Source: Lachnospiraceae bacterium
GTDB lineage: Bacteria; Bacillota; Clostridia; Lachnospirales; Lachnospiraceae
Assembly (NCBI GenBank): GCA_024403355.1
Contig: JAKSRW010000012.1
Span: 16,797-80,796, forward strand
Direction: 5' to 3'
Length of the DNA stretch: 64,000 nt
The translations under genes were made by a program, and so were the position numbers. Positions 46,251 to 57,471 of this stretch are shown piece after piece (positions within the stretch are counted from its first letter, which is position 1; each line of letters opens with the position of its first letter). The notes below the pieces were generated by a model. That model ran no database searches. It saw nothing but the letters and a program-made list of their open reading frames with translations, and had not been told where the DNA came from.

Positions 46251-46529
46251 TAGTTATTATTCTAACACTTGTTAAAGATATTGGCAATCCGCTTCGCCGC
46301 CTGCTCATATAAAAGCTGCACCTCGCTCTTTACAAGCTGTCAATCATAATTACCTCAAAAGCCGTATCAGTATTAGAAATCTAATTTGCCGTTTTCGAGG
46401 AATAAATACGCTTATTTTTGCTGCAAACCGCTATACAATCGTCATTTTATAGGCTATAATCTAATCACAGGCAGCAAAGAAAAGCCTGTCACACACAGTG
46501 CGTTAAGCACGGAAGGAGAGGTTATTTTT

Positions 46530-48023
46530 ATGAGTACGGGACAGATTATTTTAATCGCCGCAATCGTGGTAGCGGTACTAATCATCTTATTAACAGGTTA
46601 TGTTAAGGCACCGCCGGATGTTGCTTATATCATTTCAGGTATGAAGAAGAACCCCAAGATTCTCATTGGTCGTTCAGGCATCAAGGTTCCATTCTTTGAG
46701 CGAAAGGATAACCTGATTGTTAAGCAGATAAGTGTAGACATTAAAACAAACGGTTATGTACCTACTCTCGACTTCATCGGTGTAGATATCGATGCAGTTG
46801 CAAAAATCAGAGTGAAGACAGATCCCGACGGAATCAAGCTTGCTATGAAGAACTTCCTTAATATGAAGGAGGAGCAGATTATCACAGCTCTCACAGATTC
46901 CCTTCAGGGTAACATGCGTGAAATTATCGGTACTGTTAAGCTCAAGGAATTATGTACAGACCGTAAGAAGTTCGGTGATGAGGTTCAGGAGAAGGCCCAG
47001 AAGGATATGAACGCCCTGGGTATTGAAATCATCTCATGTAACATTCAGAGAATCGATGACGAGAAGGGTCTTATCGTTGCCCTCGGTCAGGACAATATGT
47101 CACAGATTCAGAAGGATGCTTCTATCGCAAAGGCTCAGGCTGAGCGAGATGTTGCAATCGCAGAGGCAGAGGCTAGCAAGGCCGCAAATGAGGCCAGAGT
47201 TTTAGCCAACACCGATATCGCTATTAAGCAGAACGAATTAAAGATCAAGCAGGCTGAATTAAAGAAGGAATCAGACTTAAAGCAGGCTGAGGCCGATGCA
47301 GCCTACAAGATTCAGGAAGAGTCACAGCGTAAGATTATCGAGGCTACAGCCGTTGAGGCTGATATCGCCCGTCAGCAGAAGTCAGTTGAGCTCCGTAAGC
47401 AGGAAGCAGAGGTTAAGGAGCAGGAGCTTGCCGCTTCAATCAAGAAGCAGGCAGATGCCGACAGATACCGTCAGCAGCAGATGGCCGATGTAGAGCTTTA
47501 CCGTCGTCAGAAGGACGCTGAGGCCCGCAAGTTCGAGATGGAACGTGAGGCAGAGGCTATGCGTATCAAGGCCGATGCCGTTAAGTATCAGGCTGAGCAG
47601 GATGCAGAAGCTATCCGTGCAAGAGGTGTCGCTGAGGCAGAGGCTATCCGTGCAAAGGGTATCGCTGAAGCAGAAGCTACCGAAAAGAAGGCAGAGGCTA
47701 TGTCAAAGATGAAGGAAGCCGCAGTCCTTGAAATGTTCTTCAAGGTACTTCCCGAAATCGCTGCAAACGTTGCAAAGCCTCTCGAGAACATCGACAAGAT
47801 TACAATGTACGGCGAAGGCAATACAGCAAAGCTTATTGAGGATATCACAAAGTCCACAACCCAGATTTCTACCGGTCTTACCGAGGGTCTCGGCTTCGAC
47901 TTAAAGAGCATGCTCGCAGGTGCACTCGGCGGAAAGGTAGTCGGTGATGCAGTTAAGAATGCAGTAAAGTCTGAGGATAAGGATACTTTCACAGAGACTG
48001 CTGCCACAGAAGCTGCAGAATAA
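46530..48023 (+). CDS. flotillin-like SPFH protein (FloT/YuaG family)
   Basis: N-terminal TM, SPFH domain and an EA-rich coiled coil (AEAEAIRAKGIAEAEA). Start moved to MSTGQ, where RBS GGAAGGAGAGG is present. Confidence 0.78.
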   Translation: MSTGQIILIAAIVVAVLIILLTGYVKAPPDVAYIISGMKKNPKILIGRSGIKVPFFERKDNLIVKQISVDIKTNGYVPTLDFIGVDIDAVAKIRVKTDPDGIKLAMKNFLNMKEEQIITALTDSLQGNMREIIGTVKLKELCTDRKKFGDEVQEKAQKDMNALGIEIISCNIQRIDDEKGLIVALGQDNMSQIQKDASIAKAQAERDVAIAEAEASKAANEARVLANTDIAIKQNELKIKQAELKKESDLKQAEADAAYKIQEESQRKIIEATAVEADIARQQKSVELRKQEAEVKEQELAASIKKQADADRYRQQQMADVELYRRQKDAEARKFEMEREAEAMRIKADAVKYQAEQDAEAIRARGVAEAEAIRAKGIAEAEATEKKAEAMSKMKEAAVLEMFFKVLPEIAANVAKPLENIDKITMYGEGNTAKLIEDITKSTTQISTGLTEGLGFDLKSMLAGALGGKVVGDAVKNAVKSEDKDTFTETAATEAAE

Positions 48024-48166
48024 AATAAGCTAATCAAAAGCCCCGGGATTTATCAGACTAATGGAATGATTAATTCCGGGGCTTTTATACCCTATCCTCC
48101 AAGATAATAAAAAGCGATCTGACTCACGCCAAATCGCTTTTAGAATTCCTCTGTCAAATTTTCTTT

Positions 48167-49081
48167 TTAGTTGATTTTAGTCGATTCGACCTGATGTGCC
48201 AGCAGCTTATCAGCCAATGCTTCAAACTTCTCCTGATCTGCTGCCGCAGACGCATTAATAATCAATTGCGACAAAATGTTTTCATCATTAACTGACTTAA
48301 TACGTTCTGTCAGACTGTCTGATATGGTAAAACGGGTGTTAATCACCTGTAATGCAAGATTGTTTTGTCCAATCTGCACACCCTTCTGTATACCTTCCTG
48401 CATGCCATTATTAAATTCTTTTTTCATCATTTCCTCGAACAGCATGTACCTCTCCTCCATATCACGACTGGTTTTCACCTTTTTCACAGAATTCTGCAGC
48501 TGCCTTACAAAACTGTCACCATAGTCTTCCTCGCTGGCTTCAGGTCCTGCAGCTACATACCTTAAGAATTTAACAAGTGCCTCTGGCACCTCGTTTTCAT
48601 TGGTTCCTACCGTACTCAGAAACACCGTATGCCTTCCGTCAGAGTAGGAAATTTTCTCGTCTTCCGCGACATACTGGCTGATGGTGTATCTGTACTTTTT
48701 CAGTTTTAACGGATCATAATCACAAATAAAGAGAACATAACTGTCCGGAAGCTTCTCATAGTCTTGTCCGGAAAGAAGCATTTCCATGTCCATATGGCTG
48801 TGATAATACCTGGCTCGCTTACTAACAGGCTGTGCATCCGCCTGCATCTCCACATTGAAGTGTGTTCCCGCCGTATCCTTAAGAAATACATCAAGCCTTA
48901 CACCCTTGTACTCCGGGTTATAGACAATGCTTTTCTCATACGAGATATCAACGTGATCCACCTTTACTCCAAGTGCAAGCTCAAGCAGGCCCTTGGCATT
49001 CTCCGGTTCAAGCATCACCGCTGCGAACATGAAATTGTTCTTTATCGTGAGATCCTTAAGTCTTTTTCTATGGTATTCCAA
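48167..49081 (-). CDS. Rpn/YhgA-like PD-(D/E)XK recombination-promoting nuclease / putative transposase
   Basis: N-terminal …DLTIKNNFMFAAVM… and …DVFLKD…NVEMQ… motifs typical of the family. Confidence 0.65.
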   Translation of the reverse strand: MEYHRKRLKDLTIKNNFMFAAVMLEPENAKGLLELALGVKVDHVDISYEKSIVYNPEYKGVRLDVFLKDTAGTHFNVEMQADAQPVSKRARYYHSHMDMEMLLSGQDYEKLPDSYVLFICDYDPLKLKKYRYTISQYVAEDEKISYSDGRHTVFLSTVGTNENEVPEALVKFLRYVAAGPEASEEDYGDSFVRQLQNSVKKVKTSRDMEERYMLFEEMMKKEFNNGMQEGIQKGVQIGQNNLALQVINTRFTISDSLTERIKSVNDENILSQLIINASAAADQEKFEALADKLLAHQVESTKIN

Positions 49082-49360
49082 TAAATCCCTCCTTTTTGCA
49101 GAGGAATTCTAAAATTATTATACACTTAGGAATACTATTCAGTCAAGCGTAAATGAAAACATTTTCGTTTTTACGTAATCTTTATAAATTCAAGAAAAAA
49201 TCACAACCACCCTTCCAAAGGGTGGTTTGTACTTGGGCTATAAGCCCTTGCTACTAGGCCAGCGTCTCAAGGCGCTGGCTTTTGATTCGTCGCTACTCCT
49301 GAAGGGGTATTATTACTACTTCACATTAACCCTTAAAAGGGTCTTCATATTCTTTAACAC

Positions 49361-49564
49361 TCAATATTCCATAACAAGTTCAAAATCAGAATCTTCAAGA
49401 ACACAATCAAAAGAGGATCGGTGGCATGTGGGTATTTTTTTTGCAGAAACCGGATCATCAACATATTCGATACCATATTTGCAAAGGACTAGGCCCCAAT
49501 ATGCTTCTGCTTCTTCCGGAAAATCTGTAACAATGTTCTCATAAACACCAAATGCTTTGTCAAA
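49361..49564 (-). pseudogene. decayed fragment of a Zn-ribbon-TPR-TIR-LRR family gene (paralog of 54387-56810)
   Basis: Translation …EAEAYWGLVLCKYGIEYVDDPVSAKKIPTCHRSSFDCVLEDSDFE aligns with aa ~63-125 of the 807-aa protein. No start codon; upstream stop codons are present. Confidence 0.55.
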
Positions 49565-49783
49565 TTCACATGGTCAATTACTGTTCTTGGAGAACTTTAT
49601 ATTTATTGAAGATTAAGAAAAATATTAAACAAAGCAGCTAAGTTTTTACATCAATAAAAACCCTTACGAAAATACGCAGTGGCTTCATTAACAGTATTCC
49701 GTTGCCTAACATAATGTATAATCTGGTAAACGTCAAATTTCCTTTAAACTTCAGATAACAACTACAAACGCCAGTTTTTGTTC

Positions 49784-50320
49784 TCACTTTACCAGTAGCT
49801 TTCTCAGGTTATTTAAATCTGTTTGAGATAAAAGAACCCTTGCAGTTAAGTTTTTATTACTATTATAATCATCAAAAATCACATACTTTCGAGTTTTATC
49901 CAACAAGTACACATTGCTATGGGCTATTGAATTTCTTATATGGCGCAACAGACATACCAGTTCATCTTTTTCATCATTTTTGTAACAACAAACAAATCCC
50001 TTACTTTTTCGATTAACTGTATGATTAGCTTTTAATCTATATATATCTAACTGCTTTTCATTGATATTACCTGACTTATATATATAATAATTACCTTGTT
50101 TTATGGCAATCTTTGCTATAAATTCTTTCCATATTGTACTCACACCCCTTGCAGGAATAGACTTTGCACTCTTACTGTCCACTGTAGGAGCTAAATGTAA
50201 ATAAAAACTAAACAAAGATTTCATTTTTTCATCTACTATTTCGAAAGGAGCTATTCGATTTTTTAAAATATCACTAATTTCCATTTTTCTCATTTCTTGT
50301 TTGTAAATAATAGACCACAA
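49784..50320 (-). CDS. HEPN-like protein (putative RNase or Abi component)
   Basis: R-x4-H motif (LRHIRNSIAHSNVY) near the C-terminus. The true start may be MRKMEISD or MEISD. Confidence 0.45.
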   Translation of the reverse strand: MWSIIYKQEMRKMEISDILKNRIAPFEIVDEKMKSLFSFYLHLAPTVDSKSAKSIPARGVSTIWKEFIAKIAIKQGNYYIYKSGNINEKQLDIYRLKANHTVNRKSKGFVCCYKNDEKDELVCLLRHIRNSIAHSNVYLLDKTRKYVIFDDYNSNKNLTARVLLSQTDLNNLRKLLVK

Positions 50321-50347
50321 GTTTCAACTGCTTAATTAAAATACGCC

Positions 50348-50500
50348 TTATTGTTTCAGCATTTTCTCTACACCCTTCTTCCTTTGATGATGTAACTTAT
50401 GAAATGTCATTGTACAGCCGCAATATTCACAGATTCCAAGAGTTTTATCTTCAAATAACTCTATACCTCCACCAAACATTTTGCATTTTAAGATTGCCAT
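50348..50500 (-). CDS. 50-aa zinc-ribbon peptide; N-terminal gene fragment of the Zn-ribbon-TPR-TIR family
   Basis: MAILKCKMFGGGIELFEDKTLGICEYCGCTMTF…; compare MAILKCKMCGGTLEINSDETISTCEYCG in the 807-aa protein. Weak RBS. Confidence 0.35.
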   Translation of the reverse strand: MAILKCKMFGGGIELFEDKTLGICEYCGCTMTFHKLHHQRKKGVEKMLKQ

Positions 50501-50612
50501 TGTATCATACTTCACAATTACAGTATCATTCCAATACAGATTGTTTTATTTTTTTAATCGCAAGCATTCGTAATATTATTAAAAATCATAATTTATCCTT
50601 TTCCCAATCAGT

Positions 50613-50747
50613 CTCACACCTTCAAATATCCCTTCGGATTACGGCTTGTAAATGTCATTGTACAGCCACAATATTCACAGGTCCCAAGAGTTTTATCTTC
50701 AGATAACTCTATATCTCCACCACACATTTTGCATTTTAAGATTGCCA
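50613..50747 (-). CDS. 44-aa zinc-ribbon peptide; second N-terminal fragment of the same family
   Basis: MAILKCKMCGGDIELSEDKTLGTCEYCGCTMTF… RBS GGGAGA. Confidence 0.35.
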
Positions 50748-50792
50748 TTTTTTTATTCTCCCTGTATAATCTGTATTCCCCTTACTCCAAAG

Positions 50793-51563
50793 CTAAATAT
50801 CCCAAATAACGTTTTTATTCAACTCACTTAATCTTCCGGTTTCGACACCCTCTGTATACAACGGAGAGCGAATCAATCTATCTTTTCGCATTCTATTTAA
50901 ATATTTGTCAGGTAATGTTATTCTAATACTTGTTAGTTTTTCATTTTGGGCTATTTTATTTATTTCGTCTGATAATCTAAGCACTAATCTGGATTCGACC
51001 TCGTATGACCATGCATAATTTTTACAAAAAATATCATCATGGACCAGTATTGGGGGATTCACAGTAGCATGATCATTTCTAACAGTTATTTTTGCTTTAT
51101 TTTTACATAAATCAACATATAGTACATCTGTCATAAACAAATCAAACGAACCATCTGTTTTTTTTAACTTATATTTTTTATCAAACTGACCATTCCCATC
51201 AAATAGCCCCAGTTCAACTGTATCTATATCCAGAATACTTTTTATCACAGAAGGTAAAAAATCAATTACAGCGCCCTTTTTACCATGTTCTCCGCTATAA
51301 AGCATCCACATAGCAATATTCTCTTTAGTTGAACATGAAAAGCTATGACCATAGACCTTTTTTTCATTCATACTAATTCGGTCCTCTTTATCATTCCATT
51401 TTTGCCCATCACTTAAATAGATTTTTCCTGTAAGCAAGAATGCAAGAGCCCTTTCCATAGAGGTATACACTTTATAGTTTTGATGAAGTCCTCCATTAAA
51501 ACGTAATGCTTTAGCTAAACTATTACTATCAGAAATATTATTTTTCAGTAATTTTATTCCCAT
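50793..51563 (-). CDS. DUF2971-like protein
   Basis: Motif …GHSFSCSTKENIAMWMLYSGEHGKKGAVIDF matches the SFS…N..MW..Y…HKG hallmark recalled for DUF2971. Confidence 0.5.
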   Translation of the reverse strand: MGIKLLKNNISDSNSLAKALRFNGGLHQNYKVYTSMERALAFLLTGKIYLSDGQKWNDKEDRISMNEKKVYGHSFSCSTKENIAMWMLYSGEHGKKGAVIDFLPSVIKSILDIDTVELGLFDGNGQFDKKYKLKKTDGSFDLFMTDVLYVDLCKNKAKITVRNDHATVNPPILVHDDIFCKNYAWSYEVESRLVLRLSDEINKIAQNEKLTSIRITLPDKYLNRMRKDRLIRSPLYTEGVETGRLSELNKNVIWDI

Positions 51564-54386: not shown

Positions 54387-56810
54387 TTAATAGTCTTTTT
54401 TTACTCTACAAAACGAACATTTTTTAATTATTAACCCCTTAAATGCAGCCCCACAATACTGGCAACGACCATTATTTCGATACTCTTTCATACGATCCAA
54501 TTTATTTTGTTGCTCTTGAAATCTTTTTTCTTCTTCTTTCTGTTGCTCTTGACGTATTTTTTCTTCTTCTTTCTGTTGCTCTTGACGTATTTTTTCTTCT
54601 TTTTTTCTTTGTTCTATAATCGACTTTTCCGACCAGGTAATTATCTCAGCTTTTTCAACACCCATATCTTTCTTTGCTATATTTTTTAACTTGTCAGGAA
54701 TAATAATTTGCGTCAAACTGCTACAGCCGCTAAATGCCCATCTGCCAATACTTGTTACACTATTCGGTATTTCGATTTGCGTCAAATTACTACACCTGCT
54801 AAATGCACTTTCTCCAATACTAGTTACACTATTCGGTATTTCAATTTGTGTCAGACTGCTGCAATCTGAAAATGCACTATCACCAATACTTATGACACTG
54901 TTGGGTATTTCAATTTGTGTCAAATTACTGCAGTTATAAAATGCACTATCACCAATACTTGTGACACTGTTGGGTATTTTTATTTGTGTCAAATTACTGC
55001 AGTTATAAAATGCACTATCACCAATACTTGTGACACTGTTGGGTATTGCAAATTCACTTATATCTCCATTAAAAGGAAAAAATGTATGTAGAATAGTTAA
55101 ATCATCGTTATATAATACTCCCCTATCTAACTTATAATATTTGTTTCCATCAGGAATTATAATCTGTGTCAAATTACTGCAGTTACTAAATGCACCTTCG
55201 CCAATAAATGTAACACTATTCGGTATTTCTATTTGTGTCAGACCGCTGCATTCTAAAAATGCCCAATCACCAATACTTGTAATACTGTTTGGTATTTCTA
55301 TTTGTCTCAAGCTACTGCATTCCGAAAATGCCCAACCACCAATACTTGTGACACTGTTTGGTATTTCTATTTGTGTCAGACTACTGCATTCTGTAAATGC
55401 ACAATCACCAATACTTGTGACACTGTTGGGTATTTTTATTTGTATCAAATTACTGCATTTATAAAATGCATATTCTCCAATACTTGTAACACTATTCGGA
55501 ATCTTGAATACAGATAACTCTGAGGCATCTGAATGAATATCAATTCTTTGCAATTTACCATTTACAATCCTAAAAATATCAGCAAAATCCCGTCGAAAAT
55601 TATTATTTATTTTAGTTTGAACATCTTTGTGCGCATATTTCATTACCTTACTGTAATTTTTAGTTTTAGTAATATCTTCCTTAAGTCCAAACTCAACATC
55701 AAAACTTTTAATTTTACATTCGACCATCAATTTAGCTACATACGCATCCCCACATTCCGGATTAATATCAAGAACACGCTCTGCATATTCCTCTGCAGAA
55801 TCCCATTCTTCATCCTCAATGAACATGAACGCACGTTTTAAAAGTGGTGCAACATTTGAGACAGACATATTATTCTGCTGTACATCATTTCCATTATCTG
55901 CTGTTTTACCCTCATCCTTTTTTATAACCTTTTTAATTCCCCGTAAAATATCATTAATAAATCCTATTTTCGACATATCCTGCGCCTGCAAATGCGCAAA
56001 TTCTTCCGGGAGTTCATATGCGTCCATATCCTTATAGCAAGGGATTAGCAGTTTACTGCGATCATTCTTCATAAGTTTCATAAAGCGTGACCATTCGTTC
56101 TTTACCCATACAGCACTAAAGTATTCCGGCTTTGAACCGATAGAAATCATTACCTTTGAACTATTGATTGCAGCGAATATATAGGGCTCATACTCCTGAC
56201 CAAGCTTGTCCTCCAAAGTAATCGCAGCATAGAAAACCTTAAAGCCTTCCTGTGTGAGCTGATGATATATGTCATTAGCTAAAACACTGTCAAATGTACG
56301 ATTACCATTTTCATCAGTTTCCTTGTAACTGATGAAAACATCATAAGGTTCTTCATTCTGGGAAATAGCAAGGATTCCCTTTTGTATCTCATCTATGGCC
56401 TTTGCTTCTGTCTCATAAATAGTTTTCTGTCCGATATCCGCATATTTTATCGCAAACCTATAATCCTCATCAGCAGTTATCGCATCAAAAGAAGACCTAT
56501 GGCAGGTTGGAACACGCTTGAGTGTTTTAGGGTCTTCAACATATTCAATACCATATTTACAGAGAATTATTCCCCAATATGCTTCTGCCTGTGTATTGTC
56601 AATTTCAATTATTTTGCTATAAATTTCTTCAGCTTTGTCAAACTCCGACTTCATACGAAGTGTATTTGCACGATTGAAAAGATTCCCGAGGATATCGTCT
56701 GTAATTTTCGGAATCGTCTGTTCTGTACCACAGTACTCACATGTCGAAATAGTTTCGTCTGAATTAATTTCTAATGTACCGCCACACATTTTACATTTTA
56801 ATATTGCCAT
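54387..56810 (-). CDS. Zn-ribbon-TPR-TIR-LRR(BspA-type) protein with a C-terminal coiled coil and zinc ribbon
   Basis: TIR signature YDVFISYKETDENG…KVMISIGSKPEYFSAVWVKNEWSRF. About twelve 23-aa IPNSVTSIGxxAFxxCSxLTQIE repeats. Tandem repeats EEKIRQEQQKE. Terminal CQYCG…CSFC. Confidence 0.8.
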   Translation of the reverse strand: MAILKCKMCGGTLEINSDETISTCEYCGTEQTIPKITDDILGNLFNRANTLRMKSEFDKAEEIYSKIIEIDNTQAEAYWGIILCKYGIEYVEDPKTLKRVPTCHRSSFDAITADEDYRFAIKYADIGQKTIYETEAKAIDEIQKGILAISQNEEPYDVFISYKETDENGNRTFDSVLANDIYHQLTQEGFKVFYAAITLEDKLGQEYEPYIFAAINSSKVMISIGSKPEYFSAVWVKNEWSRFMKLMKNDRSKLLIPCYKDMDAYELPEEFAHLQAQDMSKIGFINDILRGIKKVIKKDEGKTADNGNDVQQNNMSVSNVAPLLKRAFMFIEDEEWDSAEEYAERVLDINPECGDAYVAKLMVECKIKSFDVEFGLKEDITKTKNYSKVMKYAHKDVQTKINNNFRRDFADIFRIVNGKLQRIDIHSDASELSVFKIPNSVTSIGEYAFYKCSNLIQIKIPNSVTSIGDCAFTECSSLTQIEIPNSVTSIGGWAFSECSSLRQIEIPNSITSIGDWAFLECSGLTQIEIPNSVTFIGEGAFSNCSNLTQIIIPDGNKYYKLDRGVLYNDDLTILHTFFPFNGDISEFAIPNSVTSIGDSAFYNCSNLTQIKIPNSVTSIGDSAFYNCSNLTQIEIPNSVISIGDSAFSDCSSLTQIEIPNSVTSIGESAFSRCSNLTQIEIPNSVTSIGRWAFSGCSSLTQIIIPDKLKNIAKKDMGVEKAEIITWSEKSIIEQRKKEEKIRQEQQKEEEKIRQEQQKEEEKRFQEQQNKLDRMKEYRNNGRCQYCGAAFKGLIIKKCSFCRVKKDY

Positions 56811-57019: not shown

Positions 57020-57271
57020 GTGAAATATTCTGAATTATATGCCTTCAGAATTAAGCAATTATGCACGAAGAAGGGCATTACGATAAACCGATTAGCAACA
57101 TATTCGAATGTTAAACAATCTACCATAGACAATATAGTTCACGGGGCGAGCAAAAATCCAAAAGTTCGTACCTTACATAAAATAGCAACCGTTTTTGATA
57201 TGACATTAAGTGAATTCCTTGATTTTCAGGAGTTGAATGACTATTCCATTGATGACGAGGAAGAAGATTAA
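57020..57271 (+). CDS. XRE-family HTH transcriptional regulator
   Basis: …GITINRLATYSNVKQSTIDNIV… HTH. Terminator hairpin at 57277-57325. Confidence 0.75.
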   Translation: MKYSELYAFRIKQLCTKKGITINRLATYSNVKQSTIDNIVHGASKNPKVRTLHKIATVFDMTLSEFLDFQELNDYSIDDEEED

Positions 57272-57471
57272 CAGGGTATATGAAAATGAACCGAACATTT
57301 TCATATACCCTGTTTTTTTTATTCTCTTTTTCAAAAAATTAACAATCTATTTACAAATTTGGAACGCATTTGGAACGCTTTGGGGCCCGTGAGGGAACAG
57401 AGAACGAGTATATTTATTGCAGCAGGCAGACAAATAGCGCCTGAAAAAATATCATTTTGGAGGCATTTATT

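Follow-up and report, generated by a model that had tools for sequence, protein, structure and literature searches.

A gene for a protein of 807 amino acids (aa) lies on the minus strand of the stretch of DNA analysed here, a 64 kb piece of contig JAKSRW010000012.1 from a Lachnospiraceae bacterium (GenBank assembly GCA_024403355.1), which we call the window. The protein carries a CxxC...CxxC zinc ribbon, TPR, a TIR_2 domain and BspA-type LRRs, and three short segments of DNA on the same strand, named ribA, ribB and frag3, resemble parts of its N-terminus. The original prediction, made from the sequence letters, regarded these segments as decayed fragments of the family of the neighbouring gene that repeated duplication and recombination had left behind, and proposed that the small ribbon peptides could persist as decoys or regulators. 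In what follows we describe the segments, the family of genes they belong to and the island that surrounds them, and then weigh how they may have arisen.

Three segments downstream of a TIR gene

With the 807-aa protein as tblastn query against the whole window, exactly three further matches were found, all on the minus strand (Table 1). The match of ribA (50653-50748) covers aa 1-32 of the protein at 66% identity (E 1e-8) and that of ribB (50393-50500) covers aa 1-36 at 56% (E 3e-7); the peptides of the two open reading frames (ORFs) concerned, 44 and 55 aa long, had been quoted exactly in the original prediction, and their likeness to the N-terminal ribbon holds, with the start of ribA at 50748 instead of 50747. 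The third match, frag3 (49364-49567), corresponds to aa 56-123 with 54% identity over 68 aa, without gaps (E 2e-20). Its homology had also been noticed correctly, but it had been assigned to aa ~63-125 and called unframed, whereas it begins at aa 55 or 56, ends at aa 123 and is one open frame.

The three segments keep different parts of the N-terminal module. ribA has all four Cys and every invariant residue of the ribbon (K5-C6-K7-M8-C9-G10 ... C24..C27), and the GGGAG about 9 nucleotides (nt) upstream of its ATG is a plausible Shine-Dalgarno sequence. In ribB the invariant zinc ligand C9 is replaced by F, and no obvious Shine-Dalgarno sequence is seen upstream by reading the sequence. frag3 has no ribbon region and no start codon; it runs through 68-69 codons in one continuous frame without an indel, bounded by a stop two codons upstream and another right after Y123. 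Its onset falls within a repeat, as aa 45-81 make up a single TPR, and it alone holds the segment of TPR and AEAYWG..LCKYGIEYV.DP..PTCHR element (aa ~45-110), from aa 55 onwards, which is absent from ribA and ribB. All 16 invariant and 13 of 14 near-invariant residues are kept in frag3. An ORF of 44 aa, one of 55 aa and a stretch of 68 codons without a start are far short of the continuous ORF of ~390-1691 aa that is found in the family. Protein queries from the 142 family members described below detected no further remnant (TIR, repeat domain or C-terminal) in the window outside the intact gene, and there is no TIR homology in 49100-50800.

Table 1. Features of the locus, in window coordinates (sf1, a subfamily defined in the text)
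Feature	Position	Strand	Description
Intrinsic-terminator-like hairpin	49205..49227	-	10-bp stem and T-run; ~140 nt downstream of frag3
frag3	49364..49570	-	In-frame stub, aa 55-123 of family proteins; second half of TPR and AEAYWG..LCKYGIEYV.DP..PTCHR element; no TIR
HEPN-domain gene, 178-aa ORF	49784..50320	-	Pfam pEK499_p136 HEPN, E 1.8e-6; RNSIAH motif; between ribB and frag3
ribB	50402..50501	-	5' stub, codons 1-33, sf1-type; inside 55-aa ORF 50348-50515, MAILKC start at 50500
Spacer ribA/ribB	50502..50649	-	148 nt, AT-rich; contains the unique 11-codon tail of ribA
ribA	50650..50749	-	5' stub, codons 1-33 and 1 nt upstream, sf1-type; forms 44-aa ORF 50614-50748
DUF2971-like gene, 256 aa	50793..51563	-	Directly upstream of ribA; weak Pfam DUF2971, PADLOC candidate PDC-S31
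Membrane protein gene, 231 aa	51627..52322	-	Conserved partner of the SPFH gene
Zn-ribbon-SPFH gene, 624 aa	52327..54201	-	Multiple zinc ribbons; Pfam Band_7_1, E 1.7e-37
Intact Zn-ribbon-TPR-TIR-LRR gene, 807 aa	54387..56810	-	Pfam TIR_2, TPR, LRR_5; third subfamily
XRE-type HTH gene, 83 aa	57020..57271	+	Transcribed away from the TIR gene; at the right boundary of the low-GC block

Subfamily origin and junctions of the segments

The proteins obtained in a first homologue search with frag3 do not exceed 119 aa and are mostly truncated at contig ends or by frameshifts, so that this search is uninformative on full-length architectures. A scan with frag3 of one genome per species, among which the source species has no genome, gave 79 loci (L001-L079) with a best identity of 85%, all of them in Clostridia of the gut or rumen and in related Firmicutes. 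There are 142 N-terminal modules in these loci, 132 of them complete, and where the ORF of a complete module ends inside the locus it is nearly always 390-1691 aa long, two being cut short at 46 and 211 aa. The alignment of 51 members displays a conserved core of ~295 aa, composed of the ribbon, the TPR, the AEAYWG..LCKYGIEYV.DP..PTCHR element and a TIR with the invariant E239 in WVKNEW, followed by a variable C-terminus. TIR_2 was scored in 51 of the 51; their C-termini have RCC1 repeats in 16 cases, DUF6273 in 12 and TPRs in many, and LRR_5 only in the gene of the window, which keeps the family core including E239. Within this gene, 54505-55587 comprises eight LRR units of 69 nt (23 aa) with 61-82% DNA identity to the reference unit, as well as three 33-nt units encoding EEKIRQEQQKE, and a second CxxC...CxxC ribbon stands at the C-terminus of its product. 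Among 1.84 billion representatives the 125-aa N-terminal module matches 2104 clusters (50% identity) at E <= 1e-30, and in the 150 best matches it is placed at the N-terminus or not more than 20 residues from it. The family is very large and apparently uncharacterised.

Comparison with these members assigns the segments to two groups. One subfamily (sf1), with 'CGSTMTFPKVDDEQR' and the signature CGSTMT[FL]PKVDDEQRAAAFNRGNHFRR, is that of ribA and ribB; over 33 aa, ribA is 67-88% identical to the 19 sf1 genes (mean 78%; 82-88% with E 1e-13 for the best relatives), as against 39-67% (mean 54%) for all non-sf1 members and 64% for the neighbouring 807-aa gene. The second (sf2), with the signature ...QTVP..NEKKLTLFARANRLR..CEFDKA, is that of frag3, whose identity has a mean of 75% and a maximum of 85% to sf2 genes (L001/L003 genes; E 7e-35), a mean of 53% and a maximum of 56% to sf1 genes, and is 54% to the neighbouring gene. 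The 807-aa gene itself constitutes a third group (sf3) together with L047_3648 and L049_16390, whose N-termini are the closest to its own, at 64-65% identity over the first 125 aa. In DNA, identity is 63% between the ribbons and the neighbouring gene and 72-79% between the segments and genes in other genomes. When the pairing of ribA and frag3 was compared across 123 complete members, a ribA-like ribbon and a frag3-like TPR segment were found together in one protein in none of the 123. Judged by these alignments, the similarity of all three segments to the family is real and significant and far above a common CxxC spacing, as the original prediction had assumed; ribA/ribB and frag3 belong to two anciently diverged subfamilies, both distinct from that of the intact gene, and the segments are not copies of the adjacent 807-aa gene.

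The edges of the segments are abrupt. The DNA homology of frag3 to 70+ genes ends at 49570-49572 and at 49362-49364, and the homology of both ribbons to external genes ends at codon 33; in the four spacers no residual homology to the 79 loci or to the window was detected at the DNA or protein level (blastn, tblastx). Between each other, ribA and ribB are alike over exactly 100 nt, from 1 nt before the ATG to codon 33, with 94 of the 100 positions identical, and in a shuffle test their flanks, upstream and downstream, are no more similar than shuffled sequence. Simple tandem duplication was rejected for this pair, as the identity stops at 100 nt and the flanks are unrelated. The likeliest account is that an already truncated stub was copied, or that gene conversion took place within the common segment, and from the repeated local duplication of the original prediction this pair is the only instance of local copying that is left. 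Since the junctions are sharp and frag3 keeps its invariant residues without a stop or indel, truncation and not slow decay, the term used originally, is indicated for ribA and frag3. The paralogs were lost through deletion or replacement, not through gradual decay, and the truncation is relatively recent.

The question whether the small ORFs are genes or stubs was approached through their own divergence and through short relatives elsewhere. Six changes separate ribA from ribB, four of them non-synonymous and two synonymous, and one of the six removes the zinc ligand in ribB; the resulting pN/pS of 0.46 is not different from 1 and is uninformative (Fisher p = 0.32). A search of 5.8 billion proteins with ribA yielded nine short relatives, and the TSRNPKGYLKV tail of ribA is present in none of these nine; most of them run on into normal family sequence and are read as truncated copies. 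Three of the nine were inspected in their contigs. In L082 (8001-10028) and L083 (4541-5428) there is a full-length sf1-like gene with a single in-frame stop at codon 54, the same nonsense allele in two different metagenome samples, and this gene resides on a mobilisable element with a MobA/MobL relaxase, two serine recombinases and HTH and RHH genes. L084 (516-650) and L085 (206-430) contain further sf1 5' ribbon stubs that break off at codons 28 and 35, each behind an RHH gene, where the gene body is replaced by unrelated genes and the tails differ; these stubs are the same phenomenon as ribA and ribB. Such stubs are rare, about 5 in 142 modules. By exact-protein look-up, the ribA product is annotated as a gene in one assembly only, GCA_024500545.1.

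Paralog arrays and the surrounding island

In 36 of the 79 loci there are 2-5 copies of the family gene on the same strand, the arrays spanning 1-5 paralogs; the arrays of L001-L004 and L006 contain both sf2 and sf1 genes, with a tandem of three sf1 genes in L002. Of the 79 loci, 47 encode a homologue of the 624-aa SPFH protein (35-76% identity), without exception on the strand of the family gene; among loci that reach 15 kb, the share is 30 of 38. Homologues of the 231-aa membrane protein are found in 36 of the 79, in 27 of them directly downstream of the SPFH gene. Because the same grouping recurs across loci, the 807-aa, SPFH and membrane-protein genes of the window represent the usual core arrangement. 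Along the minus strand the order in the window is sf3 gene, SPFH, membrane protein, DUF2971, ribA, ribB, HEPN, frag3 and terminator, the hairpin beyond frag3 being the likely end of the transcription unit of the array.

The two accessory genes that stand among the segments are also encountered in the arrays of relatives. A HEPN homologue with 29% identity stands between two intact family genes in L040 (9316-9825); in the window the HEPN gene likely starts at the ATG at 50293, which gives 169 aa, and a metagenome scan with its protein gave no relatives. In L053 the space between two intact family genes holds a DUF2971 homologue; in L030 a homologue is the gene directly upstream of an intact family gene, and in L015 and L059 it is placed between the SPFH gene and a family gene. 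A metagenome scan with DUF2971 provided two stand-alone homologues with 51-52% identity in unrelated contexts (L080, 469-1230; L081, 2225-2986), which suggests that the gene moves on its own as a one-gene cassette; these two homologues are uninformative on the ancestral locus.

The block of ~49.2-57.3 kb has a GC content of 29-42%, compared with ~46% in the flanks, which is consistent with a horizontally acquired variable island. At its right boundary, after the XRE gene, there is a bidirectional terminator with a 19-bp stem (57270-57314), and XRE-like genes flank arrays in L020 and L045 as well. At its left edge, ~250 nt from frag3, a gene of the Rpn family (PDDEXK_2), a recombination-promoting nuclease or putative transposase, occupies 48167-49081 on the minus strand, and the arms of a 21-nt inverted repeat stand on either side of it (48138-48158 and 49094-49114; 2 matches against 0.01 expected). 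Next to the island but not part of it, the opposite strand carries at 46386-48023 a gene for a FloT-like flotillin, a second protein of the SPFH superfamily, which scores 277 bits with the FloT model of NCBIfam, under its cut-off of 700 bits. The tRNA scan found none, and therefore no tRNA integration site. An Rfam scan of 48-58 kb produced only hairpins matching miRNA models below threshold, and a promoter scan, with fewer matches than in shuffled sequence, is uninformative.

Exact-protein look-ups of the island proteins (ribA, ribB, HEPN, DUF2971, membrane protein and 807-aa protein) led to GCA_024500545.1 only or to nothing. For the intact gene and the island, PADLOC and NCBIfam reported no named defence system above cut-off: the NCBIfam model ThcB4 (Thoeris) gives 18.5 bits to the intact gene against a cut-off of 220, and the PADLOC candidate PDC-S66 matches it at E 9e-8 in the TIR region only. 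In the literature searched, nothing was found on SPFH proteins linked with TIR arrays, nor anything on PDC-S66 and PDC-S31 that bears on the family. The conserved neighbourhood of TIR array, Zn-ribbon-SPFH gene and gene for a ~230-aa membrane protein, which share one strand in gut and rumen Clostridia, is apparently undescribed.

Origin of the segments and comparison with known systems

We consider it probable that the locus is an eroded paralog array, in which one intact gene stands beside the stubs of two or three lost ones, because relatives hold such arrays with the same accessory genes. The ancestral layout on the minus strand would have been an sf3 gene, the Zn-ribbon-SPFH, membrane-protein and DUF2971 genes, one or two sf1 genes, the HEPN gene, an sf2 gene and the terminator, so that the array may once have had three or four TIR paralogs, of which one was kept. 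Large deletions or replacements would have taken out nearly all of the sf1 and sf2 genes and left two 100-nt sf1 5' stubs (ribA and ribB) and one internal 207-nt sf2 stub (frag3). For ribA and ribB we infer one common truncation event, followed by copying or by gene conversion within the 100 homologous nt. The stubs would now be functionless passengers, co-transcribed upstream of the terminator of the array. The three segments are then ordinary gene turnover in a variable island, and the original prediction is right about family remnants and turnover, whereas its local copies of the 807-aa gene are not supported.

Several points weigh against this reading. The ancestral layout is drawn by analogy from distant relatives (HEPN at 29% identity, DUF2971 at 30-42%) and not from an orthologous intact locus, and the 79 loci were chosen by similarity to frag3, which biases the sampling of subfamilies. 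ribA and ribB end at the identical codon 33 despite their unrelated flanks, for which two independent decays offer no simple account. In addition, with its start codon, plausible Shine-Dalgarno sequence and four Cys, ribA might be expressed as a 44-aa zinc-ribbon peptide.

Among the alternatives, the one that fares best, even if we hold it to be unlikely, is that homologous recombination uses the conserved first ~100 nt as a handle to exchange gene bodies or unrelated cargo, the stubs being footprints of cassette turnover. Four sf1 5' stubs (two in the window, and those of L084 and L085) have breakpoints clustered at codons 28-35 with unrelated genes after each, the first ~35 nt of family genes are 83-100% identical across distant genomes, HEPN and DUF2971 accessory genes are interleaved in the arrays, and the Rpn gene adjoins. 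However, the stubs number only four, detection bias would likewise put breakpoints just past the most conserved segment, all copies are direct repeats with no dedicated recombinase present, frag3 is an internal and not a 5' stub, and Rpn genes occur commonly in Clostridia. That sf1 5' stubs recur at codons 28-35 leaves a modest possibility for the conserved 5' end as a cassette-exchange handle. An extended form of the idea, to which we give a somewhat smaller chance, is that recombination drives the turnover of cassettes in an immune-type island not described before, made up of arrays of Zn-ribbon-TPR-TIR sensors, a Zn-ribbon-SPFH scaffold and a membrane protein, with the first ~100 nt as exchange handle and the stubs as footprints and perhaps also substrates, and that a free, translated ribA ribbon competes with the N-terminal ribbon of the TIR protein for its partner.

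It is improbable that the HEPN gene was inserted into a single paralog and left ribB and frag3 as its two ends, with ribA as a later copy of ribB. The order ribB, HEPN, frag3 is indeed collinear with codons 1-33 and then 55-123, and the 213-nt spacer between HEPN and frag3 has about the length of the missing 54 codons and an intergenic gap. Nevertheless, ribB is of sf1 type and frag3 of sf2 type: among the 123 complete members, those with at least 67% identity to ribA never exceed 56% to frag3, and those with at least 65% to frag3 never exceed 61% to ribA, and since none of the 123 pairs both types, ribB and frag3 are unlikely to be halves of one gene. Besides, codons 34-54 are absent, the spacer has no residual homology, and the HEPN gene of L040 stands between two separate intact genes.

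Slightly less probable again is a functional small zinc ribbon, namely that the TIR protein or its Zn-ribbon-SPFH partner has a decoy or regulator in ribA, and perhaps in ribB. In its favour are the intact ORF of ribA with the four Cys, all invariant ribbon residues and the GGGAG before its start, and the gene with exactly this product recorded in the NCBI assembly; ribA is also located inside the transcription unit, upstream of the terminator, where passive expression could occur. Against it, the 5.8 billion proteins include no homologue of the same length or with the same tail, the ribbon of ribB lacks the zinc ligand C9, the pN/pS of the pair does not depart from 1, and comparable stubs elsewhere are rare and have other break codons and unrelated tails. 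A conserved decoy or regulator role of the small ORFs, as the original prediction suggested, accordingly finds no support, nor do the short relatives point to small ORFs conserved as independent genes, and ribA is a probable pseudogene stub. Finally, local duplicates of the adjacent 807-aa gene decayed through point mutation are hardly credible. The segments do lie on its strand, 3.6-7 kb downstream, with 54-66% identity to its N-terminus, but the ribbon DNA is only 63% identical to it, closer relatives exist in other genomes (82-88% and 85% in protein, 72-79% in DNA), and the intact invariants of frag3, with no stop or indel in 69 codons, are incompatible with neutral decay down to 54%.

As the segments show, two or three paralogs are gone from the island via clean deletion or replacement and not slow decay, and in annotations ribA is best marked as a probable pseudogene stub. 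The stubs have led to a TIR family of ~2100 clusters in variable arrays tied to a Zn-ribbon-SPFH protein and a membrane protein. This TIR-SPFH neighbourhood, a candidate for a TIR-based conflict system, is of greater value than the fragments, themselves ordinary gene remnants.

Pseudogenes and truncated paralogs are a known feature of clustered immune-receptor genes such as the TIR-NBS-LRR clusters of plants. The present family resembles them in its tandem paralogs with a conserved TIR core and variable repeat 'sensor' ends (LRR, RCC1, TPR), in a copy number that differs between genomes, and in truncated remnants next to intact genes. It differs in having no NB-ARC/STAND ATPase; the stubs are without TIR, so they are not TIR-only (TX/TN-type) genes, and what is left of them derives from separate ancient subfamilies and not from recent duplication of the neighbour. 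In Rhs/CdiA loci, the variable 3' toxin tip and the immunity gene are displaced and are often still usable as 'orphan' modules. There too, fragments with the conserved segment of the family are left beside an intact gene and unrelated small genes are interleaved, whereas the parts that remain at this locus are the conserved 5' end, in ribA and ribB, or an internal piece, in frag3, with no cognate immunity gene and no sign of reuse.

With ThsB of Thoeris and the candidate PDC-S66, the intact gene and 51 scanned relatives share a TIR_2 domain with the conserved glutamate (WVKNEW), in a low-GC island with HEPN and DUF2971 genes; the matches to these models are at domain level only, there is no ThsA-type partner, and the conserved partners are the Zn-ribbon-SPFH and membrane proteins. 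For this partner module a described counterpart exists in B. subtilis, where the SPFH protein of YdjGHI/SamGHI is encoded with membrane partners (PMC8581546; bioRxiv 10.64898/2026.02.06.704340). The window joins zinc ribbons and a Band_7_1 SPFH domain in one protein, with a membrane protein encoded after it, and in contrast to YdjGHI/SamGHI there is no PspA gene; in the papers searched, no association of such a module with arrays of TIR paralogs was found. YdjGHI/SamGHI would be the nearest described relative of the SPFH partner module.

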